64,000 nucleotides of DNA from Anolis carolinensis (taxonomy: Eukaryota): the NCBI RefSeq assembly GCF_035594765.1, contig NW_026943821.1, forward strand, positions 13,609,608-13,673,607. The letters run 5' to 3'. The notes below the pieces were generated by a model, which made no database searches, had not been told where the DNA came from, and worked only from the letters and a program-made list of their open reading frames with translations. A program made the position numbers and the translations under genes. This document shows positions 13,163 to 55,165 of the stretch, one piece after another (the first letter of the stretch is position 1; each line of letters begins with the position of its first letter).

Positions 13163-14497
13163 TTAGTTGGAAACACTTTTGTGTCCAAGATTCCTCTCAA
13201 ACTTGGATCTGGCATCACCTCTCACAAGCTGCATATTGCAGTAGATGGCACTGTTCTCATCCATGGTCTGGTGGACTCTCATGTTGAATGAAGACTTTTT
13301 CTCCTTTTCTTGCTTCTCTTCCTCCTCCTTCTGCTTCTTCTGAAGCCTATAAATAAATTTTATCAGAAGGGGCTTGTCAGAACAGATAGTGATTATAAGA
13401 AAGTGTTAGATGGTTCATAGGTGAACACAGTTGAGGTGAGGAAGGACTGACCTGGATAAGCAGAGGCCAAGCAAGAAAACGCTTGCTGTAATCAAAGAAC
13501 CACAGACGGCAGAAACAAGGATTGTCACATAGGCACCTGCAATGGGGAAAAATGAAATCACAGAGAATTGGGCCAAGAATTTCAATTCCTATCCTCAGGT
13601 GAGTCCCCACAAAGCTTCTCTTCTATAAAAGCACACACTGCGGCGATTGCTTTGGACAGCAGGATTTTATCACACGTGAACATCTTTGGAGTACATATCT
13701 TCAGGGTTTTGACTGTGCATGCTATTAAAATATTTGCCAATACATTCAACATCATTCTCTGATTTTAATATCACTGTGGACCTTTGTAAGTGGAAATAGT
13801 TGGAATTAGATTTAGCAATCTACAGGAGTTAAACAGCTTCAGCTTGTGCAGAATCAGAATTTGCAATATATTAAGTAATTGGAGGATGAGCTCTTTGAAC
13901 CAAATTTATCAAAATTCATGGAATGCTTACAGGAAGTCAATCTTAATAATTAGCTGATCCCTACTAGGAATGGGAGGCCGTGATGGCGCAGCGTGTTAAA
14001 CTTCTGAGCTGCTGAACATGCTGACCAGAAGGTTGGCAGTTTGAATCCTTGGGACAGGGTGAGCTCCTGCTGTTAGCCCCAGCTTCTGCCAACCTCGCAG
14101 TTCAAAAACATGCAAATGGGAGTAGATCACTAGGTACCACTTTGGCGGGAAGCTAACGGCACTCCATGCAGTCATGCCGGCCACATGACCTAGAGGTGTC
14201 TATGGACAATGCCAGCTCTTCAGCACAGAAATGGAGATGAGCACCATCTTGACTAGACTTAACGTCAAGAGGAAACCTTTACCTTTACTAGGAATGTATG
14301 AGACTTTTATTTTAATTTTCATTTTGTCAGGTTTCACTAACATTTGCAAATTTCAGTCTGATAGGTTTACCCATAGCTAGTAAACATTATCTAGACTGCC
14401 CCCAAAATTTCAAGCAAGCATAATTTTTAAAGTGCAGATTTGCCTGAGCCCTTTCTAGGATTCTAAACATAGAACTCAGACAAATCATATCAGTGTT

Positions 14498-14546
<49 letters not shown>

Positions 14547-15253
14547 CAACAACAACAACAACAACTTTATTTGTATTCTGCCCTCTCTCCCCGACTATAG
14601 TCTTGGCCTGAGGCTTGAGACAGTAAAGCCTCCCCCCCCCCCCCCCCCAACTTGCTGGCTCCAGTAAGTTTGGATTAATACAGATCAGATACGAAGCAGG
14701 ATGTATATGGGCAGACAGTAATTCAAATCCAGACATTTGCTGGATTTTGCACAGAACCCAGTGAGAGGCTGCTCTAGATAGCAACAAAGGTCTAGGAAGA
14801 ACTCTGAAGGAACTTTACCTTTTGTTGGGGAGCTGAGCCAGAAGTGCACAGCATAGGTTCCAAAAGGATTGGATCCAAGACAGATGAGGGGTTGTCCCCT
14901 TTCCAAGCTTCCACTATAATTCAAGGAGCTGACAATCTCATTTGTATGGACCCAAGACATGATCTGCAGGGCTCCTTTGGTGCTATTGCCACTGAGGGTC
15001 TCTCCTTCCATTTGCCATTGGATCTGGGCTGGTACCTGGGACTGAAAGGAGCAGATGCAGAACAGGACATTGTCTTCATGCATGCAATTGGCTGGGTGGG
15101 TGCTGCTAGGCTGGAGGGGATCTGGAATGGACCATAAAGAAAAGCAATAAAGAGCAAAGCAAAACAGCATTTGATACCACAATAACTACAATTTTTTTTC
15201 TTTTGGAACCCTGAAATAGCAGCAGCAGAAACAACAACAACAACAACAACAAC

Positions 15254-15295
<42 letters not shown>

Positions 15296-15720
15296 CAGGC
15301 TAAGCATCCTTTATCCTGGAATTTCAAAATCTGAAATTGTCCACCTGGATGGCTAAGCTAATGACACCCTTGCATTCTGATGGTTCAATGCACACATTAT
15401 TTGTGCACACAATTATTTAAAATTATTTAAAATTGCCATTGTTATACTGCATTTTATTGTCCATTTCAACTGTGAAATTACCTTTCCCCATTTTGGCACA
15501 TTCTGCACTTTGCCCAGGATTTATGATAGTCTCCAGTTTTTAACATTGTATGCTTCTTGCTGATTTTAATGACTGTTTTTACTGATGTTGATGTTTTTAT
15601 TGGGTTAATTGTGCTTTTGCTTTGTTATTGATATTTGTTTGTTGTATCGGGCAAGGCCCCATGTAAGCCGCCCCGAGTCCCTTCGGGGAGATGGGGCGGG
15701 GTATAAAAATAAAGTTGTTG

Positions 15721-15763
<43 letters not shown>

Positions 15764-17125
15764 ATATTGTATAACATTAGATCCAGAAATGCAGCACATC
15801 ATCTTTTCCTTTTGACATTATGCTTATGCGAAAAAACAGGAAGTGTGAGAACATATGTTTCCTGCTCTTTCACATCATCTCTATTACAGGTAGAGCAGCT
15901 CTCATTCCATAGTCAAGGAATCAATAAAGAAGATGCTTGCCTGTCATGAAAACTTGAAGTGTTTTGTGATAAAAACTGTATTTTAAGATATTTCCTTGTT
16001 CGACTCTAAAGTAGTATGATCCTTCATCCTCTAACTGGGCATCATTGATCCAAAAGGAGCAGTTGCCTTGCTCTAGATCCCCATCTAAATGGATCCGGTT
16101 CTTAGTGGATTCCTTAATGGTTTGTCCTTCCTTGTTGGTGGTCATGAGAAGATCTGGTTTGCTTTGGCTGGGGACTGAAGCGCATTGGAATGGCTCTTCC
16201 TTACTCTTAAACCAGTAACCATAGAATGTTGAAAAGTTATTTACATGTTGTTTGTTATAAGTGAACTGGCAAAGGATGTGAACATCGAGACCTCGCTGCA
16301 CAGAGACAAAGGCAGATGCTGTCAGTGTATAACCTGCATGCTGGCTTAGCACACCTGTCAGGAGAAAGAATGAACATGTTAATATCTTGGTGGACATGTT
16401 GATATATAAAATCCAGTTTGGCACATTAGTCCTTCACTAGTGCTATCAAGGTATTAAAAGGGCCATTGGACACAATGACAATGAGCACAGTAACCACAGA
16501 GTGTTAACAAATAGAATCATAAATTGCTTTCGGGATGCTTCTGAAACTCGTTTTGCAAATCTTGATTATCCTTATCCACATTGTATTTTTGACTCTTTGT
16601 AGTTCTCAATTATTTCAGTATTCACCTATATTCTATTTTAATCCTAACTACAGTAAAGCTATTGAATCCACTGATTTTACTTACCATATTTATTCTAATA
16701 TACTGTGTGTTTGAATGTAAGGCACATCTCAATTTTGAAGCTGTGCATAACAATTCCAAAAAAGGATTTGCTGTTGAATGTAATGTAATGTGAGGTGGTG
16801 GTAGCCACAAATAGGCTGGTGGAAAGCCATGCCCCTCTGTCTGGTCTTCCCACCAATCTTTTCATAGTCACCGCTTCTCCTCTGTCATAAGTTGGGATCT
16901 CTTGACCAATAGGAAAGATGGCTTTAGGTGCACAATTCCAATGCTCTGATGTTACTTGGCCATATACCTTCCAGTTTTCATTTGTGAAATATTAAAGGTA
17001 TCCTACATTTCATCCAGATGTCTTCCATGAGATTAAACTCACATTTTGGGGTACCCTTGTGGTGCATCGCACATACCTTTGGACAAAAAGATCCACACTG
17101 CTATAAAACAGATCTGATTTTTCAT
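13163..17125 (-). CDS. Siglec-like receptor A (signal, V-set, membrane-proximal Ig, uncharged TM, tyrosine-motif tail)
   Basis: Exons: 17077-17125 signal MKNQICFIAVWIFLSKG; 15941-16354 V-set (VSVQRGLDVHILCQFTY..YGYWF..TN..GNCSF.I.DA..EDEGSYYFRVE) with GC donor; 14819-15121 Ig (NC...LFCIC...IQW...GNST...SSL...LIC); 13452-13536 TM GAYVTILVSAVCGSLITASVFLLGLCLSR; 13163(or 13226)-13346 tail ..ENSAIYCNMQL. All phases join in frame. The 3' end is uncertain (possible extra exon 12560-12778). Confidence 0.75.
13973..14285 (+). mobile_element. Sauria-type SINE in a Siglec A intron
   Basis: Full-length; TSD tactaggaatg at 13962-13972 and 14286-14296. Confidence 0.9.
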
Positions 17126-21656: not shown

Positions 21657-21939
21657 TATCAACCTTGATGAGCATGACACAGAATAAGAAGGATGATATT
21701 TTATAACTTCCATAATTTTGCTTACTTGTTTTCAAAGATTTTATATGGCATGGTCTACTTCTGTTCCAGGAATGCTTTGCTTCCCAGCAGATTCCAGTAG
21801 AGTCAAATGTTATTTCCCCTTGGTCATAACTACTCAACAATTGTCAATTTATTTGTTCTGTACCTGCTTCTTGTCTCCTCTTACTTCCACATCCTTCTTT
21901 TCACCAGATCTCCATCCTCTTCCAGGACCTTGCGGACAA

Positions 21940-23019
21940 ATGGACAAGACAAAACCCATGAAATATATTTCAGTCAAGGAAATGAACACCAGCAACAACT
22001 CAGAAGATGAAGTTTCCATTAACATAGCCCTTGGCTCCTTTATCTTAGTGTCTTTTCTGGTGGGGATGGCTATAAATGGGACCATTCTCTGGTTGCTGTG
22101 GATGAAGATGACGAGAACCGTGAACACACTCTGGTTCCTCCATCTGACTCTCTCCTATTTGATTTCCTGTTGTACTCTCCCATTCTTTGGCATCTCCAAT
22201 GTCCTCAATCTCCGCTGGATCTTTAAGGATGCCATGTGCAAGCTTTCTGTCTTCTTCATTACTCTGGGGATGGTCTCCACAGTCTTCCTACTTGCCACCA
22301 TCAGCCTGGACCGCTACCTCCTTATCTGCCATCCTGTCTGGTCCCAACACAATCGAACAATACCTCGGGCATGGAGACTGATCATAGGGGCCTGGCTTCT
22401 TTCTGTGTGCATAAGTGCTCCTTACTTGGCTTTCTCTAAGACTCGAGAGGTGGAAAACTATGGAAGCATATGCACAGTTAATTATACGGTCTATGAAAAG
22501 TGGGATGGAGATAAAATAGAACTGGCTTTCATTGTGGTTCGGTTCTTACTGAACTTCTTGCTTCCCTTCTTCACCATCATGTTCTGCTATTGTTCAATGG
22601 GTTGGAAAATGAAGAAGAAAAGGTTGGTGAGGACAGGGAAGCCCTTCAAGGTGCTCGGGGTTGCTGTGGCATCCTTCTTCATCTTCAGGCTTCCCTTTTA
22701 CCTCTATATGTGTTTCCTTCTGATCCACAAGGAGACATCACTACGAGAGACTCAAGAACATCTGCGGATAATCTTTCACATTGGAGTCTGCCTGAATATT
22801 TGTTTTACTCCTTTTATCTACCTCTTTGTTGGAGAGAAATTCCAACAGGTCTTCAAGACATCCATTGTAGTTCTGCTTAAGAAAAGTTTCACAGAAAGCC
22901 CCAGCATGCTTTTGGAAACTGCAAGTCTTAGAACAGAAGACATGCGGACTAGCAACAACAGCAGCAGCAACAACTTGGAAATGGTGACTATTCATGGGAA
23001 AGATCGCCCACTTTTGTGA
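21940..23019 (+). CDS. GPR33: GPR33-like chemoattractant GPCR copy 1, 359 aa
   Basis: GPR33 signatures: TVNTLWFLHL.LSY (no D2.50), ISLDRY..HPVWSQHNRT, RFLL.FLLPF, KPFKV...V.SFF, F(T/S)P..YLFVGE.F..VFK.SI. Acceptor cctcttccag ends at 21925, before ATG 21940. Confidence 0.85.
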   Translation: MDKTKPMKYISVKEMNTSNNSEDEVSINIALGSFILVSFLVGMAINGTILWLLWMKMTRTVNTLWFLHLTLSYLISCCTLPFFGISNVLNLRWIFKDAMCKLSVFFITLGMVSTVFLLATISLDRYLLICHPVWSQHNRTIPRAWRLIIGAWLLSVCISAPYLAFSKTREVENYGSICTVNYTVYEKWDGDKIELAFIVVRFLLNFLLPFFTIMFCYCSMGWKMKKKRLVRTGKPFKVLGVAVASFFIFRLPFYLYMCFLLIHKETSLRETQEHLRIIFHIGVCLNICFTPFIYLFVGEKFQQVFKTSIVVLLKKSFTESPSMLLETASLRTEDMRTSNNSSSNNLEMVTIHGKDRPLL

Positions 23020-26848: not shown

Positions 26849-27808
26849 CACTACTCCTATAATGTCTAGTGGTTGGCTGCAATCTGCATGGCTTGATTTT
26901 CTACATGGCTGAACCAGTTTTACGATATTGGGGTTGGAGAGAGCCATGACCAGCATTGGGCTCTGGCAGCCACCCAAGAAAAACCAGTACAGAAAACATC
27001 AGTCTGAGTCCTAAAACTCCACTTATTCCATTGCACTCAGAGGAACTGAACTCTGATGGATGTGTTTGATAAGGCTGCACAAATGTTACATAAACAATAG
27101 GCACAATAAATAATGGAATGTTCACTCTGCAGAAAAGAGAAGTCATTTTTATTGTTTTGTTTTGTTGCATTTTCACTTCTGAAAGCCACTTTAGTTCAAC
27201 ATTACTCGGTGTTTAATATACATGACCTTCAGGGCTGGTTGATATGTTCATTCTGTTGCCAAAGACCAAGACACTTCAACTGCCCTGGTTTGAGAAGGAC
27301 AATTCCAATTAAATGTTTGTCATCCCACTTGTTTTAGCTGCTTTTAAAGGTCCCAGTTTTTCTCTTCTCTTCCACCCTTCCTTTATTTTCAGCATTTTTC
27401 ATTTGCTGCAAACAGAGTTCAAAATACAAAAGTATTTGTCCTCAACTTTAACTCACCGGGAGAGAGAGGACAGGAGGGGGGCTTGCATATTGCCCTTTCC
27501 AGAAGCATTAGTCAAAAGCAAATTGCTGCAGCTTTTCAAACCTATGTCTCAGTTTTCATCTGGAGGTTATGGTGGTGTGAAAGGTACAGATCAAAACATC
27601 TGGAAGACCAAATATTCCTCATGCTTGCCTTTAAAAATTCAGAATTTTCCTTGAACACAAAGGTATTCATGTTGCCATACCATTTACAACCCACATTTAT
27701 GAGTTTCAAAACCAAGCTTAACAGTTGCTCTCCTCTTAGCTGGAATTGATGGGATCATATATGCATGTGCCTTTGGGTTCCTCTGCCACTTGACAAGAGT
27801 TCATTGGA

Positions 27809-30800
27809 TCAAAAAGATCCAAAAACTGTGCAAAGATTGGGCAGAAGAGATGTTACAGATTCTGTTGGTCTCACTCTTGTGATTTGTTCACACCCACTTG
27901 GATTAAGTTGAGTCTTCCTCCAGCTTGAAAACCAGAAGACAACAAAAAATATGAAGGAACAAAGAAAAACCCTAAAAGAAAATGGCAAGAGTACATAACC
28001 ATTAGTCAGGAGGTGGGATCACATAAGAACAAGAGGATTGTGAAGGATCCAGGTAATTATTACTTGGATCCCTCACATTCCTCATTTGCCTTCAAGTTGT
28101 TTCTAATACAAAGCGTGTCTATCACAGGTTATTCTGGGGCTAAGAGTGTGACCCAGCCAAAGTCACTCAGTGAATTTCCACGTTTGAGTGGAAAATCAAA
28201 GTAATAGTCCAATTCTCAAACAACTGCACCATTCTGGCTCCCATATAAATCATTTATTCCTAAAAATCTTCCCTTTTATTTCTCCCTTTCCACTGGATGG
28301 GCATCAAAGGCAAGGGATCACTTACTTGATGAGGAGTAGACCTATCAGGAAGGAAACTACTGCAGTCAAAGATCCAAATGTTGTAGACAAGAAGTCCTTA
28401 TGGGATGCTGTAATGATAAGATCAGAAAAAAGACAACAGGAATAGTTTGCTAGCTTGTGAAAGTTCTTGTCTTAACACATAGGACCTTATCACACGCACC
28501 CTCCCACCATGCCGTTTCACCAGCAAGCTTTGTGAAACAGCAGGTGCACAGGGAGACTCCATCACCCATGTGCCACTCCAGGGCAGTGACTCTTCCCCCA
28601 TCAAATGGAGGAAGCATCACCCAACCAGGGCAGAAGTGTGCTGGTGCCATTGGAGCCAGTACAACACGGGAGCCTTCCCATGTTGATGAGGAAACGTCCT
28701 AGGATGCTTCCACATCAACTGGAGGTGGGGCCTCTTCTGGAAATTGAGGGATGTAGTGTGATGGGCTGCATGGCCATCCATCACTCAGCTGGCTACAAGC
28801 ATCCTAGGACACTTAAATTGGTAAGTATGATGAGATCCTAAGTCATCTATATATATAAAAAAGTGATGGAATCCCGGCGACGAACAAAACAACAAAACTA
28901 TATACCCCACAACCTCAAAATTTAGCAGCACAACCCCTCCTCCATGCCTCTAGGTTCATACAACAAAAATAGACAACAGGAACCACCACGGGGCCTAATA
29001 AATCCAAAAAACAAGAACGCTCCATGTGCGCCTATGCCAAAACGAGCCCCAGGCGTGGACAGAACAACCCCCACCCCTCCCCTCAATGGGAGCTCCCGCA
29101 CGCTCCCATTTTCCTGCCCTGAGGCACCGCCCACCAAAAAAAACTCACCCACCAGCCCTCAACGTGGCACCAGGGAGGAGGGAACAACAAGGCCTGCACA
29201 GAACCCCCCTCCGCCACCCTCCGGAAAGGCCTGGCCGGAACCGGGGCCAGGGGACGCGATGAGGAGAGGGCCCAGAAGGCAGACCTCCTCCCTGGCCACC
29301 CTCCTCCGGGGCCTCCTTCTCCTCATTGTCATGAGGGAAACAAAGCCAGGAGGGAGGGAGGGAGGGGCCTGGCCCACGTCGCCCTGTCGAAAAGACACAC
29401 CAACGCCATGGAGGTATGGAGAGGCGGGGGCCAGAAGGAGGAGGAGGGGGACGTAGGAAGAGTTCTCCCTCAGTTACTTTCAGTTTCTCCTCATCTACGC
29501 CTCAATTATAATAAAAACAATCACAACCACAAAAATAATAATCAACATCTTCACAGGCAAGAAGCACCCAGGCACTGAAGCTGCAAGGCCATTCAATGCT
29601 AATCAAACTTGCCAATGACAACATTCACACTTCCAAACACACAATATAATACACTTAGCCAAGCTTCACCTATCCAAGGCAGTCTACCATTTAGTACTCA
29701 ATGTTTTTGAACTTAATGTTGCAATGTTTGGGTGCTACATTCGTAAAAACAGTAATTAATACATAACATTACTGTATATCGTATGTAATAATTACTGTGG
29801 TCTAATAAGAAAACAAAACAATAGCATCTCTAAAATCAGGACACAAAATACAAAACAACATTCAGAAGACAGGGAAATTCCAGAAAGGGAAATTCCAGAC
29901 AGGAAACAATCAGGCCCAGCTAACACATCCCAACAAAGGATTCCCTCAACCAGGAAACAGCCAGGCCTCAAACCTCCAAGGCCATTCAATATAAATCAAG
30001 GTAACTAACTGCAACATTCATACTTCCTGCACTCAGACTATTCATTCCTATTCGACCTGGCCAACCAACAATTCCACAAGGTAGAAAGCAGCCAGGCTTC
30101 AAACCACCAAGACTACTAACTCCTCTTCAACCTGTCAAACCAATATTTCACTTCATTTCACTTCACTTCACTTTATTTCTTAATTAGTCGCTCTCCACCA
30201 GAGTGCTCCGAGTGACTTACAATTTAAAATATCATTCCACAATATAAAAACATTCAACATAAAAACATTCAACAGTGACTATTTGGCAAACTAGATCTGA
30301 TCTACTCAAATGCACAACCAAACAGCCAAGTCTATTTCCCCTACATAAAAAACCCCTCACGTTTGGAAGCTATCAGGCCACTCCGTTCCATTCAACCAGC
30401 CCAAACAAGGAGGTCCCTATATAGAAAGCGCCCAGGCTTAGAAGCAGCGACGCTATTCAGTGCAATTCCAATTGGCCACAGCAACGCGTGGCAAGGCACA
30501 GCTAGTGAATTTATAAAGTGCAGTTACAAACAAGTTTGAGCTTCAACTGAACCAGTGGGAAACTCACAGTTCCCACCTCCTTCAAAATGCATCCTTCAAA
30601 ATGTTTGTCAAAGTCTCTTTGCAGATAAGCTTTTGCAAGAAGTCCATACTGAAAATGGCTTCCTCTGCTCCACATACCTCAAGCATCCAAAATAGCTTCC
30701 CCCATGTTGCTGATGAACTGTGCTCAGGTGGAATAAGAAGGTGAGGAAAGAGAAGGAAGAGGGAAAGCTACCTTTGTCCATCTAGTTTGGCCCAAGGAGA

Positions 30801-33800
30801 GGTAATGGGGTGGGAGTTTTCCACACCTCTGCTTTTTCTAGATGCCTTTGCAATGAGTCCTATTTTAGCATTGATGGGTGCATACATTGATCCACCCTGT
30901 CCCCCAAATAGATTCTCTACTCATATGACTCCTATAAAGTTCAGGATAAATGACAGAATACTCCAGCATGGGAGCCAGCATGGTGGAGTATTTTGAGCCC
31001 CCGGTGGCGCAGTGTGTTAAAGCGCTGAGCTGCTGAACTTGCAGACCGAAAGGTCGCAGGTTCAAATCCGGTGAGTGGAGTGAGCGCCCACTGTTAGCTC
31101 CAGCTTCTGCCAACCTAGCAGTTCAAAAACATGCATCCAAGGACCATTATATCTTAGGGACCGCCTCATTCCTTTTTTCCATCAGTGGTCACCTCGATCC
31201 TCCTAGGAAAATCTCCTATACGTACCGGGCCCTAGGGAGGAACGCCTGGAAGATACAAGGCGTAGAGCCTTTTCGGCCTATGCTCCAATTCTGTGGAACT
31301 CATTGCCTCCATATCTTAGAGCAATATGGGAGCTGCGACCTTTTGGAAAAGCACTCAAGACTTGGCTATTTGGTTGTGCATTTACTAATCAGATCTAATT
31401 TGCCAAATAGTCACTGTTGAATGTTTTTAGGTTGAATGTTTTTATGATGAATGTTTTTATATTGTGGAATGATATTTTAAATTGTAAATCGCTCGGAGCA
31501 CTCTGCTGGAGAGCGACTAATTAAGAAATAAAGTGAAGTGAAGTGAAGTGAAGTGAAGTGAATGTGAGATCAATAGGTACCGCTCTGGCAGGAAGGTAAC
31601 GGCGCTCCATGCAGTCATGCCGGCCACATGACCTTGGCTCTTCAGCTTAGAAATGGAGATGAGCACCAACCCCCAGTCGGACATGACTGGACTTAACATC
31701 AGGGAAAACCTTTACCTTTACTAAAAGACAGAACAACTTGATCTGAAATGTAACATGAGAGCTATTAGCGGACAATGTTCAGTAACACTCTGAACAATAC
31801 CTTCCTTTAAAGGAAATCGGATGGCAACTATAATCTGCCTAATAGGCTTGAGCGATCCATGAAAAAATTGATTCTAAACTCGTTTCAAAAGTAGGGGGCG
31901 CTAGCGTTTTGTTTCTGATGTCATTTTCGAATTTTGCCCTCAAAAATTTTCGAAATTTAACAAAAATTCGTTAGTTTCAAAAGTAATTCGTTAATGGCGG
32001 ACGCGTATGCGCAGAAGCAAAAAAAAAACAGCACGAGGGGAGACTTTACAGGACTCTCCCGCCCTCATTTTTTGAGCTATCTTCTTCAAACTTGGTATAG
32101 TGGTAGAACGCATTTAACACTGATAGCTCACCAAAATTCAGAACGTTTCCCTTATCCTCTGATTTTTGGCGAATTTTAATAGCTTTTATAATAAACCATT
32201 TTTTAATAATTGCAGAAATCTGTTCCTGGTTTGAAAGTCTTATTTCCTGTTTCATTGGGTTGTCTTTACTGTGAAAATCATTGTTCTACTTCAGAAACTT
32301 TGTTTTTGTGGCTGAAACTTTGTTAAATTGGTGGACCAAACCATAATATGTTCCATCCATGTCGCTTGCACAAAGTTCAGGCAGTGTCATAGATTTTGCC
32401 ATGTTTCTATGACAGAACCAATTAGGAAATGACATTTATCACCCAGGAACAGAAATCATAGTACACCATCAAATCATTCCTGACAGATGGCCATCAGCCT
32501 CTGAATAAGGAAATAGTTCCTGGTTTGAAAGTGCTATTTCCTGTTTCATTGGCTTTTCTGGGCTGAGAGTGTGTGACTTGCCCAAGTGGGTGGCTGAGTG
32601 GGGAATCAAGCCACAATTGGAGTCCAAAATTCAAACCTCTCCCTCCCTCCTTCTCTCTAAACTTCTCATACCTTCCAAGAATTCACATACTGTATGAAAG
32701 TTTGGTCAAGATGGTCAGAGGAGGGCAACTAAAATGATCTAGGGTCTGGAGAACAAGCCCTATGAGGAGCGGCTTGAAGAACTGGGCATGTTTAGCCTGC
32801 AGAAAAGAAGGCTGAGAGGAGACATGATGTATAAATATGTGAGGGGAAGTCATAGAGAGGAGGGAGCAAGCTTGTTTTCTGCTGCCCTGCAGACTAGGAT
32901 GCGGAACAATGGCTTCAAACTACAGGAAAGGAGATTCCACCTGAACATCAGGAAGAACTTCCTCACTGTGAGCTGTTCAGCTGTGGAACTCTCTCCCCCG
33001 GGCTGTGGTGGAGGCTCCTTCTTTGGAGGCTTTTAAGCAGAGGCTGGATGGCCATCTGTTGGGAGGGATTGGATGGTGTCTTCCTGCCTGGCAGAAGGGG
33101 TTGGGCTGGATGGCCCACGAGGTCTCTTCCAACTCTACCGTTCAATGACTCTATGATTCTAAGTGAGGACAAAAGGGGGTGGGGAATGTTAAGAGGAGAG
33201 AGGGCCTGGAACACCTGGGAATTGTAGTTTTAAAGTGGGCAGGGCATAGTACTATTGGAGAAACGTTTGCTTCAGCCCAATGCTTTTATAAATGGTCACA
33301 ATTCAGAGGCTTCGTTCTCCTGCATTTTGAAAGCTATTATGATGAAATTTGCCAGAATGGAAGCAAAAATTAAGTACTCTTTGCCTATCAAGTTTCATAA
33401 TGTTTGACCCATCCACTGAATTTTGGGGATTTCTGAAGCAACATTTTTTAAAAATGTTAGCAGATCGATGACCACGCCTCCCTGTCCTCCTTCCTTCCAC
33501 TTTGATTGGCTTGCTAAGGCTTCTGGGAAATGGAGTTTTTCTCTCCTAATGGCGACTTGCTTCATTTCCACTTAAAAGAATGGTCAAAATTCAGAGGCTT
33601 CGTTCTCCTGCATTTTGAAAGCTATTATGATGAAATTTGCCAGAATGGAAGCAAAAATTAAGTACTCTTTGCCTATCAAGTTTCATAATGTTTGACCCAT
33701 CCACTGATTTTTTGGGGATTTTTGAAGCAACATTTTTTTAAAATGCTAGCAGATTGATGGCCATGCCTCTCCCTCCCTCTCTCTTCCGCTCTGATTGGCT

Positions 33801-34655
33801 GAGAGGCATGCCAACATGGCTTCTCCTCTCAGAGGGGCTACAGCTACATCCGAAGACATCAGAAACAAATGAAAAAAGGTACTTTTTTATTCAAATTCGT
33901 AATATTTGTAAGGCAGTGAGCAGATGTTTCAAATATCATTTCAAAAGTACTTCCGAAACGAATTTTTAACGAATTTAACGAACTAACGAAAAATTTGCTC
34001 AAGCCTACTGCCTAAGCCATAAAGTGATAAGAGTGATCAGATCATTTTGGGAGGACTTTAGTAGATAGCTCAGAGGTACGTACCTGTCACTGTCACAGTT
34101 GTTTGAAAGTCATGATAATTTATTCTTATTCTTCCTTTCTCCATTCTGAAGAAATAAGTCTTTTGGTCAACATCTTGAACATTGCTGATGATGAAAGAGC
34201 AAACCCCTTTCTTTAGACCTTCCAGTAGATAAAAGCGCTTGCGAGCGTACTGCGCGATCGTTTTTCGGTCATCGTTGGTGGCCACAGGAGGATCAAAGGC
34301 AATATTGCTACCTTCCTCATACCAGTATCCATACAGTTCGGCCATTTTATTGCTGGTTAATGCTGGGTACGTGAAATTGCAGGGGATGACGACAGACTGG
34401 CCCTCCTCAACTGACACAGCATGAGGGACATTCAGTGTGTAATCATACGTTGTAGACAACACACCTGCAAAGAAAACATAAGAAATTCATATCCCTTCAA
34501 TAGAGAACACTTGATCAAGGAAAAGATTCTGTAGAATAATCCAGGATGGATTCCTTATGGTCTCTGAGCTCTGTTCTCTCAATCTCTTACTTACCGTCCC
34601 AATATAGTGAGAAGAAAACCAATCCAAGCATCAAGATCTCAAAGACAGAGCTCAT
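27809..34655 (-). CDS. Siglec-like receptor B (single V-set, TM lysine, tyrosine-free tail), 228 aa
   Basis: Exons: 34595-34655 signal MSSVFEILMLGLVFFSLYWDG; 34084-34464 V-set (VSVEEGQSVVIPCNFTYP..YGYWY..PVATND..RF.L..CSF.I..D..TYFFRME); 28326-28407 ASHKDFLSTTFGSLTAVVSFLIGLLLI-AA|gtaagt; 27809-27971 ag|G-VFLCSFIFFVVFWFSSWRK...GSF*. All introns are GT-AG and all phases are compatible. Confidence 0.75.
28846..30505 (+). mobile_element. Non-autonomous Helitron with cargo, in Siglec B intron 2
   Basis: 5' A|TCtatatatataaaa; 3' hairpin gccacagcaacgcgtggc followed by CTAG|T; no TSD; same termini as 51660-52121. Confidence 0.8.
30146..30333 (-). mobile_element. L2 LINE 3' UTR fragment nested in the Helitron
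   Basis: Reverse complement of about 31358-31560, including the (GTGAA)n tail. Confidence 0.8.
30995..31722 (+). mobile_element. Sauria-type SINE interrupted by an L2 3' end (about 31135-31560)
   Basis: The SINE breaks at aaaacatgca and resumes at aatgtgag. The insert encodes GPLYLRDRL..RAFSAYAPILWNSLP..LKTWLF and ends in (GTGAA)n. Confidence 0.85.
31843..34007. mobile_element. Non-autonomous hAT-like DNA transposon containing a CR1 insertion (32714-33158) and an internal direct repeat
   Basis: TIR taggcttgagc / gctcaagccta; 8-bp TSD ctgcctaa (31835-31842, 34008-34015); direct repeat starting at 33291 and 33579. Confidence 0.85.
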
Positions 34656-35493
34656 CCTACTTTTTGTTTTCCTCCGTGGAACTTCGGCCACTTCACAGCT
34701 CTTCTATTTGCTGTAGAATTTCACAACCCATCTGTAGTTGATGGTAGAAATAATATCTATTTCTCCAGCAAGTGCGGAATCTGATTGGTTACCCAACAGT
34801 TGATGTTTCAAGATATAAGGCTAGTTTGTTAAGAGAGCAAATGCTTATTATAGCAGGGAGAGACTTCTGTGATTCAGAAGACAGAAGGCAAAAGTTGAGG
34901 AGAAGTCAGCCCTCTATAAAAAGGGAACTCCAATACATGGCAACGAAGTGAAGCCACTATGTTTTGAATTCTTGGCTGCTTACCAATGACCTTCTGATGT
35001 TTACTCAGTGGACAGCAAAGTTTAGAAATGGGAAGGGCCATTTCTTTTTCTCTTATTTTTTTTTGAAGGCTTAGCTATTTTCAGATGATTTAACTGCGTT
35101 CAGGAGAAGTAACAAATGGAAAAATACGAGACCACACTCAGAATGTTGGGTTGAAAGATAGGTCATTTTATTTAAAGTATAGCCTATTTAAAGTTCAAAC
35201 TTTAGGATTACTCAAAAGGGAGGTGCAACCCAGTGTGGGAGTGGCAGAGGCAGTTGGTCTGTGACAAACCTTCTCCCCAGCTTTCCTTTGGCAAAACATC
35301 TAAGCTGCAGGGAGAACCCAAAAGTTGCTTTGCTCCATGCCTAGCCATTTACTGGAGGATCCAAACTCCAAGTCACATTAACTGTAGCGAGGGCTAAACT
35401 CCCAAGCCAGCCAAAAAACAGCCTTCTTCTCTACTCCTGTATCTCATGACATGTCTAGGTGGCTCCAGAGAACTATACATCACCAAATGGATG

Positions 35494-35683
35494 TCATAGA
35501 AGTTGACTGAACACCCAATTTCTTCCCCTCTCCCTCAAATGCTGCCTCGGTTTCTGCTTATTTCTCTTATTCTTGTGTCTTCTTAATACCATAGCTGTTG
35601 GAACTCTCCTTCTCACTTGAGCTTTCCATTGAGTGGAAAAAGAAATGATGGTGAAAAAGAAGAGGAAACTGATTTTCAGTGAC
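35494..35683 (-). pseudogene. Orphan copy of the activating-Siglec TM2/cytoplasmic exon
   Basis: SLKISFLFFFTIISFSTQWKAQVRRR aligns with Siglec C ALLCFFFFISIISLFTQRKAQVMKR. Acceptor is weak and no upstream partner exons were found nearby. Confidence 0.65.
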
Positions 35684-40754: not shown

Positions 40755-43589
40755 TTTTTTTTTTTAAGCATTTTATTTATAATTTTCGTGATACAATAAA
40801 AGTGGAAGGAAACGTTTATATAAAAAAGGTCAGAAAGAAAAAAAAAAACCCAGACGAGTAGAGAGACCAACAAACCAAAACCGAATCCCCCCCACCTTCC
40901 TTCCTTCCTGAATGACCTTCCAGATCCTCTGCCCTGTGTATTGTGACTTACTTTTTTTTTTCTCACTTTCCCGACCCAATTTTCTTAGATCCCCAGAATG
41001 TCTTCACATAAACACCTTTTTCCCTATATTTCCAAGTTCCATTTTTCTTTTAAATATCTACTTAAATTATTCCAGTTCGTTTTTGTCGTTGTATGATATT
41101 TTTGTGAGATTATCTGCGTTAAATTGTCCATATTTTGTATGTCCATTAGTTTCAATGTCCATAGCTCTAGCGATGGAATTTCCGTCGTTTTCCAACTTTT
41201 CGCTATCACAATTCTGGCTGCACTTATCATATATATGAACAGTTTTTCATTGTTTGAGTCCATGTAAAAGTCGGTTAACCCTAGTAGCAGATATTCCGGT
41301 TTTAATGTGAATTTTATTTGTAGTATAATCTCCATCTCTTTCTTAATTTTTCTCCAGAACCTTTTGATCTTCTTACATCCCCACCACATGTGAAATAGAT
41401 CTCCCTTTTCTTTCCTACATTTCCAGCACTCTTCCCCCCTCTTTCCCTTGTTAAATTTTGCAAGTTTTACTGGCGTAATATACCACCTAAAAAATTTTTT
41501 ATACCAACTTTCCTTTATAGCTGTTGAGTATGTGTATTTTAGTCTCTTTTGCCAACATTTTTCCCAGTCTTCGAAATTTATAGTGTGTCCGAATTCCCTC
41601 GCCCATGCAATCATATTGTCCTTAACATAAACCTCTTCTGTTTCCCAGATCAAAAGCTGTTGATATAACACTTTAATCACTTTCTTTTCAAGCTTTAGAA
41701 CTTTATCCCAGGTTGTATCATTTTTCTCAAATCCTATTTGATTATCAATTTTAAAGCATTCATTGATCTGCCAGTAATTTAGCCAGGTTATAGATGGTTC
41801 TAATTGTTTAACCTCCTCATATGGTTTTATACTTATTCCGTGATTGTCTCCTCGTACTAAATGTTTGTATGTTAGCCATCTTTCCCTAGGGATCTCCCTC
41901 ATATGTTCTGATTCTAACGGAGAAAGCCATAATGGAGTCTTCCTGTAAAATTTATGCTTGTATCTCTCCCAAGTTGTTAATAATGCTTTTCTAATATAGT
42001 GGTTGTTGAAGTTTTTTTCTTTGAAACCTTTTCTTTTCCATAGATAAGCGTGCCATCCCTTATTCAGGTCCTGGCCTTCTAATGCTAAAATCCTGGTCTT
42101 CCGCAGGATAGCCCATTCCTTAACCCATTCTAGTACCGCTGCATCATAGTATATCTGGAGGTCAGGAACTCCCATTCCCCCTCTCCTGATGTCATCCTTC
42201 ATGTACTGAAATTTTATCCTTGCACGTTTTCTGCCCCAAATAAATTTGTTGATCTCTTTCTGCCAGTCACTAAGCGTTTTTTTATTTCTCAGAATGGGTA
42301 AATTTTGAAATAGGAATAGCGCTTCGGCTAAAACCTTCATTTTTATGGCAGCTATTTTTCCTAATAGCGAGAGGTTTAATGCATCCCATCTTTCCATTTT
42401 CTTTTTCACTTCTCTCCATTTTTTATCGTAGTTATTTTTCTGCAGTTGGGTATTGCTAGCTGTTAGTTCAATCCCTAGATATTTAACCTTTTTAACTACC
42501 TCTATCCCCGTTTTCTTTTGTAATTCTTCCCTCTGTGCTTGTGATATATTCTTAGTCAGTATTTTGGTCTTCTCTCTGTTTATCTTTATCCCGGCTATTT
42601 CCCCAAATTTTTCAATTGTCTCCAGCCATAACTTAATCTGATTTGTTGGTTCTTCAATCAAACATACAATGTCATCTGCATAGGCACGTGTTTTGAAAAT
42701 GATGTTTTTGGTTCTCAGCCCTTTCAGGTCTTTGTTTTTCCTGATTGCATCCAGCAGAATTTCTGATGTTAAGATGAATAGTAATGGGGAGAGAGGGCAC
42801 CCCTGTCTTGTTCCTTTCTTTATTTCTAGCGTGTCTGATAATTCCCCGTTTATTATAATCCTGGCACTCTGTTTTGAGTAGATCTTTTTTATTGCGTTTT
42901 TAAAGTAAAATCCTATATCCATCTCAGAAAGAGTCTCTAATATACAAAACCAATTAACGCTGTCGAATGCCTTCTCGGCGTCTAAAAATAAAAATGCCAC
43001 TTCTCTTTGTCTGTTTTTTTCGTAATACTCAATTGCATTCATTATTATTCTTATGTTGTCTCTTTGGTGTCTTCCGGGCAGGAAACCACATTGGTCTTCA
43101 TGAATTCTTTCTGCTAAGACATTTTTTAATCTTTCCGCCAGTATACTCGTGAATATTTTATAGTCTACATTTAACAGGGAGATCGGTCTGAAATTCGCAA
43201 CTCTAACATTATCTGTATTTTTTTTTGGTATTAGAACTATATTGGCATTTTCCCAGGATTGTGGAATCTTTTCCCCTTCCAGAATATTGTTCATTACCTT
43301 TTGTAGCGGTTTGCTTAGAATGTCCTGAAATACTTTATAATAAATAGTTGTTAGACCATCCGGCCCGGGGGCTTTATTATTGGGTAATCTTTGAATTGCT
43401 CTCACTATTTCTTCTATATCTATTTTCTTATTTAATCGTTCTCGTTGATTTTCTGTAATTTTCTTAATATTTTGCGTTCCTAAGTATTGTGTGACCTTCT
43501 CTTTAGGGATTTTATCCTCTGTGTATAGGTTCCTGTAATATTTGATAAATTGTTTTTCTATTTCTTTCCGTTCGAAATATATGTTGTTG
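40755..43589 (-). mobile_element. 5'-truncated L1 LINE with an uninterrupted ORF2 RT and CCHC region
   Basis: ORF 41024-43405 (KAPGPDG, FRPISLLN.DYK, LDAEKAFD, GTRQGCPLSPLLF, YADD, KYLG, CWKC..H..C); poly(A) at about 40755-40765; TSD catttagggatttc(ttttt) at 40741 and 43590. Confidence 0.95.
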
Positions 43590-44328
43590 CATTTAGGGAT
43601 TTCTTTTTAGCCCAGCACAGAGATGTACTTACTAGAAGTATTAGTCACTCCTCCTCTTTGCAAATTCAACAATTTATTGGAACTCTGGATGGCTGTTGCT
43701 ATGAAGGAACAAATCTCTCCCCTTTCCTGATTGGGATTTTCTGATGCTGAGCAGAATTCTGGGAAATGTAGTTTAGTGCAGGGTCTTTTGAATTCTCTGG
43801 CATTGGGCTCCTCACCTTCCCAAATTACATTTCCCAGAATTCTGTGCTTTCCCAGTCTCTTTCCCAACGATCTTTCCCAAAGATCTCTGCTTTCTCCCTG
43901 CTGTTTCCCTCTCCCAATGGTAAGAAGCCATTAATTTAAAGACAAATGGCAGACTTTTTGGCTTTGCTTTGCTTGCTTGCATTGAATAATGAAACTGATT
44001 TTGGGAGGCTTCTTAGGTTTACAAAATTCAAATGAAAAAGTGTTGGATATGTTTCGATTGGTGTGGACTGATCCATGAGGTCACGAAGAGTCAGAAATTA
44101 CTGAATGAATAAACAACAACAACACATGTTTCAATTGTTATGTTTGTGGTGTCAGCTATGCCCACATGTCAGATATCATGTTGTAAGTATGAATTTAGCA
44201 AATTTGACCCAACTTATGAGGACAAACAATAATTTTGCATAGTCCTAGTAATTGCTTCTGCTTTTTCTCTTGTCATTTCACCTATTAACATTTAGTTCCT
44301 CTCCATTTTCTTCCAGGGCAGTGAGAAC

Positions 44329-45351
44329 ATGAATGTCTTTGTGGCGAACATTTCAGAGATGGGAATGAACACCACTTACTCTCCAATTGCTATAAGCCCC
44401 ACCAATGTTATCATTGCTGTCTGTTTGTTGATATCGTTTCTAGTTGGCACAACCATAAATGGGCTCTTTCTCTGGGTGCTGGTGGTGAGGATGAAGAACA
44501 CAGTGAATGTTCTCTGGTTTCGTCACCTACTTCTCATCTTCTTAATAGTCAGTTCCATCATACCTTTTTTTGCTGTGCACCGCCTCCTTGGATTTCACTG
44601 GATCTTTGGTAATGTTCTGTGCAAGGTTCTCAATGCGCTCGGTTCGCTAGGAATGTTTTTTGAGGTATTTATCCTCACCAACATCAGCCTGGATCGCTTC
44701 TTCGCAGTATGCCATCCCATTTGGTCCCAACACAACCGCACAATTCCCAGGGCCCAACGAATCATTGCAGGAACGTGGCTTGTTTCCTTACTCTTCAGTG
44801 TCCCATACCTGATTTTTCGGGAGACTCATGAGGCAACAAATAGAAGGATTATATGTGCCAATAATTACACATTTTTTCTTGATGCAGAAAAAACCGAAAG
44901 AGATGTGCTGGCATATCACATTCAGTTGGCTCTCTTTGTCATACGATTCCTATTGACCTTTTTGCTTCCCTTTGTAATTATAGCAGGATGTTACTATAAG
45001 ATTGGAAAAGAAATTAAGAAAAGAAGATTAGTGGAACAAAATGGGAAAACGTTTAAAATCCTCATCACATCAGTGGCATCGTTTTTCATTTGTTGGCTTC
45101 CATACCATCTCTACTATGCTTCTCAGCTGTTGGGCAAACTTTCTGATGGAATACATATTTTTCTTAGTTCAGTTATGAGCGCTGGCATGTGTTTCAATTT
45201 CTGTTTCACCTCCAGTCTTTATCTCTTTGTTGGACAGAAATTCCAACAGGTCTTCAAGACATCCATTGTCACTCTGCTTCAGAGAGATTTTGCAGATGCT
45301 CCTTTCGTATTTGTTGACAATATAAACATGGAAGATGGAAACGACCAATAG
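44329..45351 (+). CDS. GPR33: GPR33-like chemoattractant GPCR copy 2, 340 aa
   Basis: INGLFLWVL..RMK.TVN.LWF.HL, ISLDRF..HPIWSQHNRT, PYLIFRETH, C.NNY, RFLL.FLLPF, SFFICWLPYH, YLFVG.KF..VFK.SI; acceptor ttttcttccag ends 12 nt before the ATG. Confidence 0.88.
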   Translation: MNVFVANISEMGMNTTYSPIAISPTNVIIAVCLLISFLVGTTINGLFLWVLVVRMKNTVNVLWFRHLLLIFLIVSSIIPFFAVHRLLGFHWIFGNVLCKVLNALGSLGMFFEVFILTNISLDRFFAVCHPIWSQHNRTIPRAQRIIAGTWLVSLLFSVPYLIFRETHEATNRRIICANNYTFFLDAEKTERDVLAYHIQLALFVIRFLLTFLLPFVIIAGCYYKIGKEIKKRRLVEQNGKTFKILITSVASFFICWLPYHLYYASQLLGKLSDGIHIFLSSVMSAGMCFNFCFTSSLYLFVGQKFQQVFKTSIVTLLQRDFADAPFVFVDNINMEDGNDQ

Positions 45352-47239: not shown

Positions 47240-48036
47240 TGTTTGTTTATTAATTTATTTGCAGTATTTATATTCTGCCTTTCTCATCCTAAAGGGCGGA
47301 TCACAGAACACACATTCAATGCAATTTATATACAGTAGAGTCTCACTTATCCAACATAAACGGGCCGACAGAACGTTGGATAAGCGAATATGTTGGATAA
47401 TAAGGAGAGATTAAGAAAAAGCCTATTAAACATCAAATTAGGTTATGATTTTACAAATTAAGCACCAGAACATCATGTTATAAAACAAATTTGACAAAAA
47501 AAGTAGTTCAATACGCAGTAATGCTATGTAGTAATTACTGTATTTACGAATTTAGCACCAAAATATCATGATATATTGAAAACATTGACTACAAAAATGG
47601 CTTGGATAATCCAGAACGTTGGATAAGCAAGTGTTGGATAAGTGAGACTCTACTGTATTGACAAAACATACAATTGTACATAGAATAGAGGTATATATAG
47701 GTTTTTTCCATCTTTGACATCTTGGAGGCTTGTGCTCGGTTTCAGCAATGGAGGAGTGCTGTCGCTCCATCTCCCTGCCGAAGAGCTTTGCTCATAAACT
47801 TCCTCCTTGATTGAATCGTCAGCATTTTTCTGGCATTTCCTTATGGATGCCTTAATACCTCCCCATTTTAAAGGGGTACCTATTTATCTACTCACATTTT
47901 GCCTTCCAACTGCTAGGTAGGCAGAAGCTAAACTAAAAGCCAGGAGCTCACCCTGACTCAAGCTTTGAACTATCAACCTTTTGATTGACAAGATTTACTG
48001 CAGCTTGTGGTTTAACCTGCTGTACTAAAGCCTGGC
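47240..48036 (-). mobile_element. tRNA-derived SINE (same family as 37945-38410) split by a mariner MITE (47333-47655)
   Basis: Head sequence matches the 37945 copy; the MITE has TIR cagtagagtctcacttatccaa and TA flanks. Confidence 0.75.
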
Positions 48037-51000
48037 AGATTGTACTGTCATTGTTGCTCTTTGTTTCTTCTTTTTCAGGAGGCACAGCAGCTTGCATCTT
48101 CTTAATGTCTGTGGTTAATCTTTTCATTACTTGAGCTTTCCGTTGAGTGAAAAGCGAAATGATGGAGATAAAGAAGAAGAAACACAGCAGCGCTCTGGAA
48201 AGAGATGGTCACTTTTTAAAACAAAAACAATGAACCAAGTGGCAGGGAGGAAGGACCCAATGTTGCTCATTTCTCCAATATTTTTCCTGGTTTTTAGCCA
48301 GGCTGCCTTAGAGGGCAGATAGTGAAACTAAAGCCAACACTTACTTGATTAGGCAGAGGACTAGCAATAATGGAACAATAGAGCCGAAATATCCTGGTGC
48401 TGTAGGTTCACCTTGGACCTCTGAAATGATTTAACCAAAATAATGTTGAGTCTTAAAATTAATTTTATGCCATAATATCCTTAAAAACAATACCAAAAGT
48501 GTGTTTGTGGAGGATCTGAACTTATAAAGTTGGGATTCAAAGAGAGCTATGTTGTCTTCTTCAGAAGAACTGGACATGGTCCCATCTTTTGACATCCCTC
48601 ATTCATGGTTTACATAGAGGAATCAGAGACCCAGTTTAATCTGAGTCCAGATTACCTGATACAAAGGGCACAATTTATGGATAGAAATAGAAAACAGCAC
48701 ACAGTGAGTAAAGAAGAGCTCTATGCAGATGGGGAATGTGTGTAGAACGTTAGAGGACAACTGAGATTGACCTATCAGCAGAAATGGGATCCAAATAAAT
48801 TAAGGGATGTGACATCCTACTGAAGTTGGGAGGATCTAAACGTTTAGGTGGAAAATTGGGTGGTGGTGTTTTATTAATTAATTTATCTTATTCCCCTTCT
48901 TTTGTGTTTTAGAATTTAAAAGAAACAAAGGAACACTTGTGGTTTAATGTTGGACCAAAGACATGGAAACCCACTGTGTGACCTTGAATAAACCTCAGCC
49001 TCCAAGGAACTTAGACAAGGGGACATTATTCTTCGACATTGGTTCTCAACTTGTAGGTCCCCAGATATTTTGGCCTTCAACTCTCATAAATCCTAACAAC
49101 TGGTAAACTGGTTGAGATTTCTGGGAGTTGTAGGTCAAAATACCTGGGGATGGGCAGGTTGAGAACCACTGTTCTAGGACAACTGCCAATGCACCTTTTT
49201 CCCTAAATGGTGCTACTCCTCCCTCTCCCCATGCACACACAACTCAATGCTATTTTAATTACGGTCAAGATTTATTTGATCTAAGAAAATGCCACTGTGC
49301 CTTCCTTACCTGTTACAGCAAACCAGAAGGTTTTCTCAGTAACGCCTTCGCTGTTTTCTGCGCGACACTTGTATGTGTCTGTATGTTGTATCTGTACACG
49401 AGGAAACTTCCATTCACTGCCTCTTATGAGATGAAATTTTCCCAAGGATTGTGTTTCCTCCACCCAAGTGACATTGGGTGAAGGGTTCCCCTTTGCCTTG
49501 CAGTGCAGTGCCACAATCTGAGTGCTATCAGTGACATCTGTGAAGCTTGTCAAATCTGCAAGATTTCAAATGGATAGAGATGTAGAGAGGAAACTAGGAT
49601 TACAATTTTCCCAAACAATATGCTCTCTTTTCTGGATTCTGTCACCAAGAATAGCTCAAGATATTTGGCTTCTTATAGCGATCTGATTTTCTATAGCTCC
49701 AAAGAACTAGATAAGACTTTCCATTCCAAAGATGTATCATCAAATACCAATCAAAATAGCAATCTCTTTATATTTTGGATTTCCGTGTGTGTGTGTGTAT
49801 GTGTGTGTGTGTTAAAGCCTGTCAGCAAAGAAGCTGACAGGAAGGAAATTATGTCATTTCAAATACAATATTGGAAGAGAGATCTACAAATAACACGGGC
49901 CACTAAAAGGATAAATGAATGTGCCCTAGAGCAAATCAGGCTTTAGAGTCCACGATGATTCATGAGAGACTACCGTAATTTGTATACATCAAGATGACCC
50001 CAATCCTGAATCCGCAAGACATGAACAGGATAATTGATGGATAGGGATCTTGATGATCTCACATTCATAGGTTTACTCAGAATGAAAGACTTCCAAGATC
50101 ACTGGTCATCTGCTCTCATGCTCTCAAGAATTCAAAGTTTTAAAACCCATCTTTCTTTTAACAGTTTGCTAGGATGCTCAGATCTACAAAAGCAAAGGAA
50201 ACTTACCTTTCTTTGATTCCATAATTTCACTGGTGATGCCTACGATTTGTGGTGGGTCTGTAAGACAAGAATAATCTCCATGTGAGGACCTGGCGGAGAT
50301 TGGAAGGACTTCTCTCCATTTCTCCCTCTCTCCCTCCTTTCTCTCTCTCTCACACACACACTCACACTCACATATGATTATCATGGTCACATACAGAGGA
50401 GATTTCAGTGAAAAAAATGGTTTTGGAGATTGAGTCCAAATTTTAAAGGAGCTCTCCAAGGTGCTGAAATATTTGGTGGCTAGAGTTTAGTCTTTCAGAT
50501 AGCCAGTTTAAGTATTGTATTGAGTAAAATCCTGAGTAGTTTATCTATAAAATGTTGGAAGGCCCTATACCAGTAGTTTTCAACCTGTGGTTCCCAGATG
50601 TTTTGGCCTTCAACTCCCAGAAATTCTAACAGCTGGTAAACTGGCTGCGATTTCTGGGAGTTGTAGGCCAAAACACCTGGGGACCCATAGGTTGAGAACC
50701 ACTGCCTGACACAGATATTGTTACAGGTTTGGACACAGACCTCTGTCCGGAACTGCTAAATGGAGGATGCCTTTTTTTGATGTGATATATTGTATCAATA
50801 TTCTGGATTAGAATGTGGGCTTTGTCTAATTTTCTCTTTCCTCCAGCAATCGGCTCTAGATAGCCAAGAAAGGCATGAAGGAAGGATGTTTAAACATGAT
50901 TCCTCCAAATGTTTATGCAGCAGCTGATGAGAATATCAGGACTAACTGCATTTTTCAGCAACAGTACTGCTCTATGGAAAATATTTTATATTAGCACTAC

Positions 51001-54946: not shown

Positions 54947-55002
<56 letters not shown>

Positions 55003-55108
55003 ATTGAGGCTGGGTGGCCATCTGTCAGGGGTGCTTTGCTTGTGCTTTTGGTGCACAAAGGCAGAAGGGGGTTGGACTAAATGGCCAAAGGGGTCTCTTC
55101 CAACCCTC

Positions 55109-55165
<57 letters not shown>

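Follow-up and report, generated by a model that had tools for sequence, protein, structure and literature searches.

A CD33-related Siglec gene without a C2 domain in Anolis carolinensis, with a predicted counterpart in Sceloporus undulatus

The analysis of a 64,000-nucleotide (nt) stretch of Anolis carolinensis DNA (assembly GCF_035594765.1, contig NW_026943821.1, positions 13,609,608 to 13,673,607 of the forward strand; hereafter the window) reveals three minus-strand Siglec genes, named A, B and C, one of which, gene B, joins its V-set domain directly to a membrane anchor. Siglecs are described as a V domain followed by 1-16 C2 domains (PMC7911748), in keeping with the minimum of one C2 domain given in a preliminary description of this DNA; gene B has no C2 domain and is thus a structural variant rather than a standard CD33-related Siglec. 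From the sequence comparisons, we are highly confident that its one-immunoglobulin (Ig)-domain architecture is real and conserved, as first proposed in that description and now strengthened by a gapless counterpart in Sceloporus, the loss of the inter-domain cysteine and the lack of any C2 remnant. By analogy with known receptors, the product is likely activating, and binding of sialic acid is predicted with somewhat less assurance. On balance, we favor a four-exon, C2-less CD33-related Siglec gene that likely encodes a one-domain receptor, for which DAP12-type pairing is predicted and weak binding of sialylated glycans through Arg127 is likely.

Gene B comprises four coding exons whose joined frame stays open for 228 residues, with three GT-AG introns, pyrimidine-rich acceptors and six canonical splice sites. 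Exon 1 (34595..34655, minus strand as throughout, 61 nt) begins with the ATG at 34655, encodes the signal peptide and ends in a phase-1 donor; 13 of its 20 residues are those of the Sceloporus undulatus protein XP_042296813.1, and the leader is also present in Anolis XP_016851580.1. Exon 2 (34084..34464, 381 nt) encodes the CD33-related Siglec V-set domain (PF07686, E 2.1e-08), including Tyr29, the Cys49-Cys109 pair, Arg127 and one N-glycan sequon at residue 50. By alignment, the TCT codon of Ser44 (34394..34396) stands at the V-to-C2 inter-domain Cys position (CD33 Cys36), the codon of Arg127 (34145..34147) at the Arg that holds the sialic-acid carboxylate (CD33 Arg119), and the codon of Ile135 (34121..34123) at a G-strand position that is aromatic in CD33 (Tyr127) and in Sceloporus (Phe). 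Beyond intron 2 (28408..34083, 5,676 nt, without N, mostly interspersed repeats), exon 3 (28326..28407, 82 nt) supplies a stalk of about 15 residues and the first half of the transmembrane helix, its final two bases being the first two of the Lys175 codon, and exon 4 (27809..27971, 163 nt) supplies the second half, a 36-residue Tyr-free tail and the stop. Exon 4 was matched by tblastn with the Sceloporus protein (E 4.8e-11, 26 of 53 residues identical), and the nearest AATAAA past the stop (27382..27387) is a candidate polyadenylation signal from a pattern scan only. The direct joining of the V-set exon to 28326-28407 and 27809-27971, as previously proposed, checks in coordinates, phases, splice dinucleotides and the 228-residue frame.

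Evidence for this architecture also comes from another lizard family, in which an automatic gene model has the same V-to-anchor join. Among proteins of 75-242 residues, the best match to the V exon was Sceloporus XP_042296813.1 (RefSeq, "CD33-like," 228 residues), which aligned with the gene B model over all 228 positions without a gap, 137 of them identical (13/20, 84/127, 14/28 and 26/53 across exons 1 to 4), contains only a V-set domain in Pfam and branched as sister to gene B in both trees (100/99). The two proteins share length, layout and Ser at the inter-domain site, and they differ at the G-strand site, which is Phe in Sceloporus, and in the tail, where Sceloporus carries an ITIM-like motif (immunoreceptor tyrosine-based inhibitory motif). 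A single-sequence fold of the Sceloporus protein, with a predicted local distance difference test (pLDDT) score of 46.6, was uninformative. The next-best V score belonged to the N-terminal part of Pogona vitticeps XP_020663111.1 / XP_078236102.1; like gene B, three Pogona records join leader, V domain and the same Lys anchor directly, and, unlike it, they keep the inter-domain Cys and continue into a second gene. Grouping of Pogona with gene B was neither supported, occurring in 24% and 6% of the 200 bootstrap trees, nor rejected by the approximately unbiased test (p-AU 0.13). Word-index protein searches, which are insensitive and were length-limited, returned no further C2-less lizard proteins. 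In gene C, as well as in Rhineura, Elgaria, Tiliqua, Eublepharis and Paroedura models, the same Lys anchor comes after C2-type domains, suggesting that the two-exon anchor with its split Lys codon is a shared squamate module.

No C2 exon was recognizable in intron 2 by either of two approaches whose controls were positive, in line with the earlier claim. In tblastn with 162 Siglec-like proteins, the best match within 28408-34083 had E 0.077 and lay on the wrong strand; 88 of the same 162 proteins matched the first C2 exon of gene C and 31 its second (E<1e-3). The preliminary description had proposed an Ig-domain scan of the six frames of this interval with hidden Markov models (HMMs), and three C2-type profiles, one for each non-V domain type and built from 120, 49 and 29 domains after same-locus records had been removed, all stayed below zero (maxima −1.6, −3.4 and −2.6 bits), against 80.0, 63.2 and 78.4 bits on exons of genes C and A. 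The intron contains five candidates for open phase-1 exons (201-345 nt), which were rejected: all fall within the Pro/Gly/Arg-rich segment 29153-29494, and the open reading frames overlapping them have no Pfam match. The description of the intron as almost entirely transposons is borne out as to repeat load: summed contig depth in the DNA-like sequencing run X1 exceeded 40,000 in 17 of 21 intron 2 bins vs 28-50 on exon bins, and 1,506 of the 5,676 intron bases have matches in other parts of the window. Single-copy islands persist at about 28408-28824, 30477-31024 and 33978-34083. The intron also holds an inverted repeat pair (30147-30333 and 31358-31557, 96% complementary, about 1.1 kb apart), and between its arms, at 30477-31024, the depth in run X1 falls to about half. 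The 15 contig joints listed, of 282, all lie inside repeats.

The inter-domain cysteine provides a further line of evidence. In CD33, Cys36 bonds Cys169 of the C2 domain and is left unpaired when the V domain is isolated; with Cys36Ser, such an isolated domain binds ligand as the wild type does (PMC6669322). This position is Ser in gene B (Ser44) and in its Sceloporus counterpart, as loss of the C2 exon predicts and an artefact of missing sequence does not, which supports true C2 loss. Gene C keeps the Cys, and gene A, which likewise lacks that C2 partner, has Asp. We surveyed this position in 213 V domains from 153 of 155 sequences (162 proteins minus 10 near-duplicate or same-locus records, plus three window domains), and found the Cys in 118 of 123 V domains with C2 next and in 77 of 90 without.

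The V domain was identified by both sequence and model. Its top PDB sequence matches were Siglec-7 (E 5.6e-23), CD33 (E 1.8e-21), Siglec-8, -10 and -5, the five spanning E 1e-17 to 1e-23, and an AlphaFold2 model from 54 sequences (pLDDT 93.6) superposed on CD33 with a TM-score of 0.93 and a root-mean-square deviation of 1.1 A, identifying the predicted fold as a CD33-related Siglec V-set. The Cys49/Cys109 pair aligns with CD33 Cys41-Cys101, and the essential Arg of the YFFRME motif, earlier reported as intact, is Arg127, aligned with CD33 Arg119; this residue, Tyr29 of the A-strand and the FRMEKG loop are kept in both anole and Sceloporus. The earlier label of a TREM/CD300-like architecture fits the layout and not the domain, which is CD33-related: no TREM or CD300 chain stood among the listed PDB sequence or fold matches, and PILR-beta is the closer functional precedent. 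As for a sialic-acid receptor, the intact Arg favors the earlier proposal, although it is less safe than the Arg implies, given that Ile135 replaces CD33 Tyr127. Ile occurs at this G-strand site in only 4 of the 213 V domains (Tyr, Phe or Trp in 169), and CD33 Tyr127Ala abolished binding of the sialoside P22 (PMC6669322); both points count against sugar binding. We nevertheless predict, with rather better than even confidence, that gene B binds sialic acid.

The most serious competing reading is that the one-domain activating receptor has drifted off sialic acid to a protein, lipid or microbial ligand and works in a TREM/CD300-like manner on a Siglec scaffold. Ile135 would fit such a drift, non-sialylated microbial proteins are among the ligands of some Siglecs (PMC13358205, section 4.3.4), and no inhibitory twin was seen, the V domain sharing only 55-58 of 130-132 residues with ITIM-type Anolis records and none of the 6 Anolis records compared being a near-identical inhibitory partner. 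Against it stand the conservation of Arg127, Tyr29 and the FRMEKG loop in two species, the Phe of Sceloporus at the very site in question, and the main-chain nature of the adjacent G-strand ligand contacts in CD33 (PMC6669322). We consider this reading unlikely.

The anchor and tail bear on the direction of signaling. A hydrophobic run of about 27 residues (hydropathy peak 2.8) extends from exon 3 into exon 4 and has Lys175 close to its midpoint; together with the signal exon, this single segment predicts a type I membrane protein by hydropathy. The Lys175 codon is split AA|G across exons 3 and 4, and the earlier comparison with gene C is correct in phase but not in sequence, the codon of gene C being AA|A. 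A charged transmembrane residue is a mark of DAP12-coupled Siglecs (PMC6288428), and in the anole the sequence beyond residue 190 contains neither Tyr nor an ITIM. The central Lys and Tyr-free tail thus fit the activating role previously assigned, which we regard as likely, by analogy; a point on the other side is the Sceloporus tail, in which an ITIM-like S-x-Y-x-x-I motif (S-E-Y-R-Q-I) aligns with S-G-C-E-Q-I of the anole, Cys standing in the anole where the motif has Tyr. This alignment is the basis for supposing that the one-domain receptor is not simply activating and is instead a decoy, or a dual-signal receptor whose tail Tyr motif persists in Sceloporus but has disappeared in Anolis. 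Genes B and C and all six other squamate genera with models bearing this anchor nevertheless share the transmembrane Lys and its split codon, and the anole tail is free of Tyr, leaving this explanation improbable.

Several observations weigh against the four-exon, C2-less reading itself. The Sceloporus record is an automatic prediction without comment. Cys loss is not specific, with 5 of 123 C2-followed domains lacking the Cys and 77 of 90 domains not followed by C2 keeping it, and Pogona retains it despite the direct V-to-anchor join. Contigs were compared for four sequencing runs (X1, X4, X5 and X6), none of the 24 runs listed being on record as RNA: an X4 contig runs from the V exon 41 nt into intron 1, and X6 contigs are unspliced over intron 1 and the V donor, as expected of DNA or pre-mRNA. 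Contigs of X1 and X6 are unspliced and DNA-like, and exons 3-4 have no cover in X4 and X5. In favor of the model, a 161-nt contig of X5 places 116 nt on 34593-34708 and ends at the leader donor, and assigning its remaining 45 nt wholly to the V exon, with nothing in intron 1, reproduces the bin depths of this run exactly (7.29 and 3.02 observed vs 7.288 and 3.022 computed), from which depth arithmetic a leader-to-V splice can be inferred. Finally, the Anolis RefSeq models XP_016851580.1 and XP_062818589.1, which contain the gene B V exon letter for letter, make no use of exons 3-4 and instead continue from the V exon into gene A.

These fused models raise the question of whether the V exon belongs to a longer protein, spliced either to gene A as a tandem-V "Siglec-12" or to a C2 exon absent from the assembly. 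The repeat-rich intron 2 is spanned whole by no DNA contig, and by reads alone a collapsed assembly is possible. The fused models, on the other hand, span a G-protein-coupled receptor (GPCR) gene on the opposite strand, rely on linker exons that are not conserved and change from one version to the other, and place the signal peptide of gene A internally; we therefore read the fusion as an artefact, in which two genes appear to have been wrongly joined. Moreover, the intron is free of N, an independent genome gives the same C2-less protein and the Cys that would pair with a C2 domain is gone, so that a longer protein is very unlikely. Least credible of all is a decaying duplicate truncated by C2-exon deletion: the cluster is unstable, with an orphan transmembrane-exon piece at 35615-35669, and the Anolis models omit exons 3-4, but the gene retains 228 codons with no stop, frameshift or indel against another lizard family, about 50% identity even in stalk and tail, six canonical splice sites, and a single listed V-exon read difference (position 34274) that is synonymous from the sequence.

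Returning to the C2-less receptor that we favor, its origin may be outlined as follows. The squamate two-exon activating anchor, with its split Lys codon, elsewhere stands after one to three C2-type domains, and the C2 exons of such a gene would have been deleted in the ancestor of Anolis and Sceloporus. Because every Ig exon is flanked by phase-1 introns, a deletion of this kind keeps the frame and is the simplest origin; the unpaired inter-domain Cys would then have become Ser. Since the tail lacks a signaling Tyr, Lys175 would recruit an adaptor bearing an ITAM (immunoreceptor tyrosine-based activation motif), together with Syk on myeloid cells, as in Siglec-14/-16 and PILR-beta, an analogy for which the Lys-DAP12 coupling of activating Siglecs provides the model (PMC6288428; PMC13358205, section 4.3.4). 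Sugar binding would be weak and driven by avidity. With a binding site only about 15 residues from the membrane, deep in the glycocalyx, the receptor would be masked by the sialic acids of its own cell, strongly so because of the short stalk; a review ties the length of Siglec-1 to escape from such masking (PMC13358205). It might thus fire only on dense ligands at close contact, for example on sialic-acid-mimicking microbes, and would oppose the ITIM-bearing Siglecs of the same cluster. A bolder and more tentative extension, which we rate as possible at a little over one chance in three, is that a one-domain activating Siglec evolved in iguanians, perhaps twice (Pleurodonta and Pogona), converging on PILR-beta, Cys-to-Ser change included, with the anole receptor shifting to a new ligand. 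If true, this would be a natural test of the purpose of the C2 spacer, in which the Cys-to-Ser change is the one engineered into isolated CD33 V domains.

Comparison with known systems places gene B among, and apart from, several receptor families. The activating CD33-related Siglecs (Siglec-13, -14 and -16; also -15) share its V-set sequence and fold, essential Arg, intra-domain Cys pair, charged transmembrane residue, short tail and location in a Siglec cluster beside FPR-like GPCR genes; they differ in having C2 domains, whereas gene B has lost the inter-domain Cys and the anole has Ile at the G-strand aromatic site. The PILR ectodomain is a single V-set domain in which an Arg holds sialic acid, as shown for PILRA (PMC6235402), and PILR-beta signals via DAP12 (PMC2211832). 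This single-V, Arg-dependent, DAP12-coupled layout resembles that predicted for gene B as a convergent design, but no PILR chain occurs among the 60 listed of 64 PDB sequence matches, and PILR is a far weaker fold match (TM-score 0.69-0.71, 23-24% identity, ranks 48-49). TREM2 likewise has one V domain, a stalk, a transmembrane Lys and a short tail (PMC12428023); for TREM2 and CD300 the likeness is of layout only, neither being among the listed sequence or fold matches. Some splice forms of Siglec-7 retain V as their sole Ig domain (PMC2195632), but these end at codon 146 and lack a membrane anchor, whereas gene B keeps its anchor and the C2 exons are absent from the gene.

The literature covered, with subscription journals mostly outside it, yielded no description of a Siglec gene lacking C2 or of CD33-related Siglecs in lizards. 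The novelty is nonetheless tempered by the public Sceloporus model and by PILR-beta, which already has the design of a single-V, Arg-dependent, DAP12-coupled sialic-acid receptor. In addition, 7 of 225 V-domain matches in 154 proteins have a hydrophobic segment within 70 residues. Apart from Sceloporus, Pogona and one spurious row, they include predicted models of two bats, of a tree shrew and of a frog, which may be isoforms or artefacts. Frog models from Hyla and Bufo (P0044, P0016 and P0181) show tandem V domains, several without the inter-domain Cys and one running V-V-transmembrane without C2, and C2 loss may, by sequence, have occurred in amphibians too. With precedents for the design in PILR-beta and TREM2 and a function that is only predicted, the ceiling on significance is moderate.

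The surroundings of gene B indicate a modular cluster. In the window, the three Siglec genes are interleaved with four rhodopsin-type GPCR genes, found as single-exon, chemoattractant-type frames by Pfam (2694-3884 on the minus strand; 21697-23019, 44296-45351 and 60830-61963 on the plus strand) and without an NCBIfam match; the one compared was closest to FPR2 (E 5.6e-45). The alternation suggests that a Siglec-plus-GPCR unit was duplicated in tandem, and in mammals Siglec and FPR genes also neighbor each other. Gene C (47900-55497, minus strand, 449 residues) is arranged leader-V-C2-linker-C2-anchor with Lys; it shares its leader with the ITIM-bearing Anolis XP_008115518.2 (P0168), is identical to it at 111 of 146 leader and V residues, and grouped with it (98/96), the two being likely an activating/inhibitory pair. 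Two Rhineura floridana proteins, P0035 with an activating Lys anchor and P0161 with an inhibitory tyrosine-motif tail, align at 446 of 477 positions and are paired Siglecs that likely underwent gene conversion. Gene A (13150-17125, minus strand, 344 residues) is arranged leader-V-proximal Ig-transmembrane-tail, a two-Ig Siglec that lacks the usual first C2, joins V to the membrane-proximal Ig type, has a GC donor after the V exon and carries an ITIM-like S-A-I-Y-C-N-M in its tail; RefSeq models fuse or truncate it. The orphan piece at 35615-35669 (minus strand), about 1 kb upstream of gene B, is 87% identical over 55 nt to the second transmembrane exon of gene C and is likely what is left of an activating Siglec that was deleted. 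A long interspersed nuclear element (LINE) copy (41024-43930, minus strand) with a reverse-transcriptase frame of 860 residues (PF00078) lies between genes B and C.

Overall, gene B appears to be a real and conserved C2-less variant of the CD33-related Siglecs, and the squamate comparisons suggest that it belongs to a squamate-specific modular set of activating and inhibitory receptors. The Anolis annotation is corrected at this locus, where two genes had been fused in both models. Gene B would allow the need for the C2 domain and the inter-domain disulfide in folding, surface display and signaling to be tested, and, as receptor length is thought to set the balance between cis masking and trans binding, the C2-less gene would mark the lower limit of the Siglec series.

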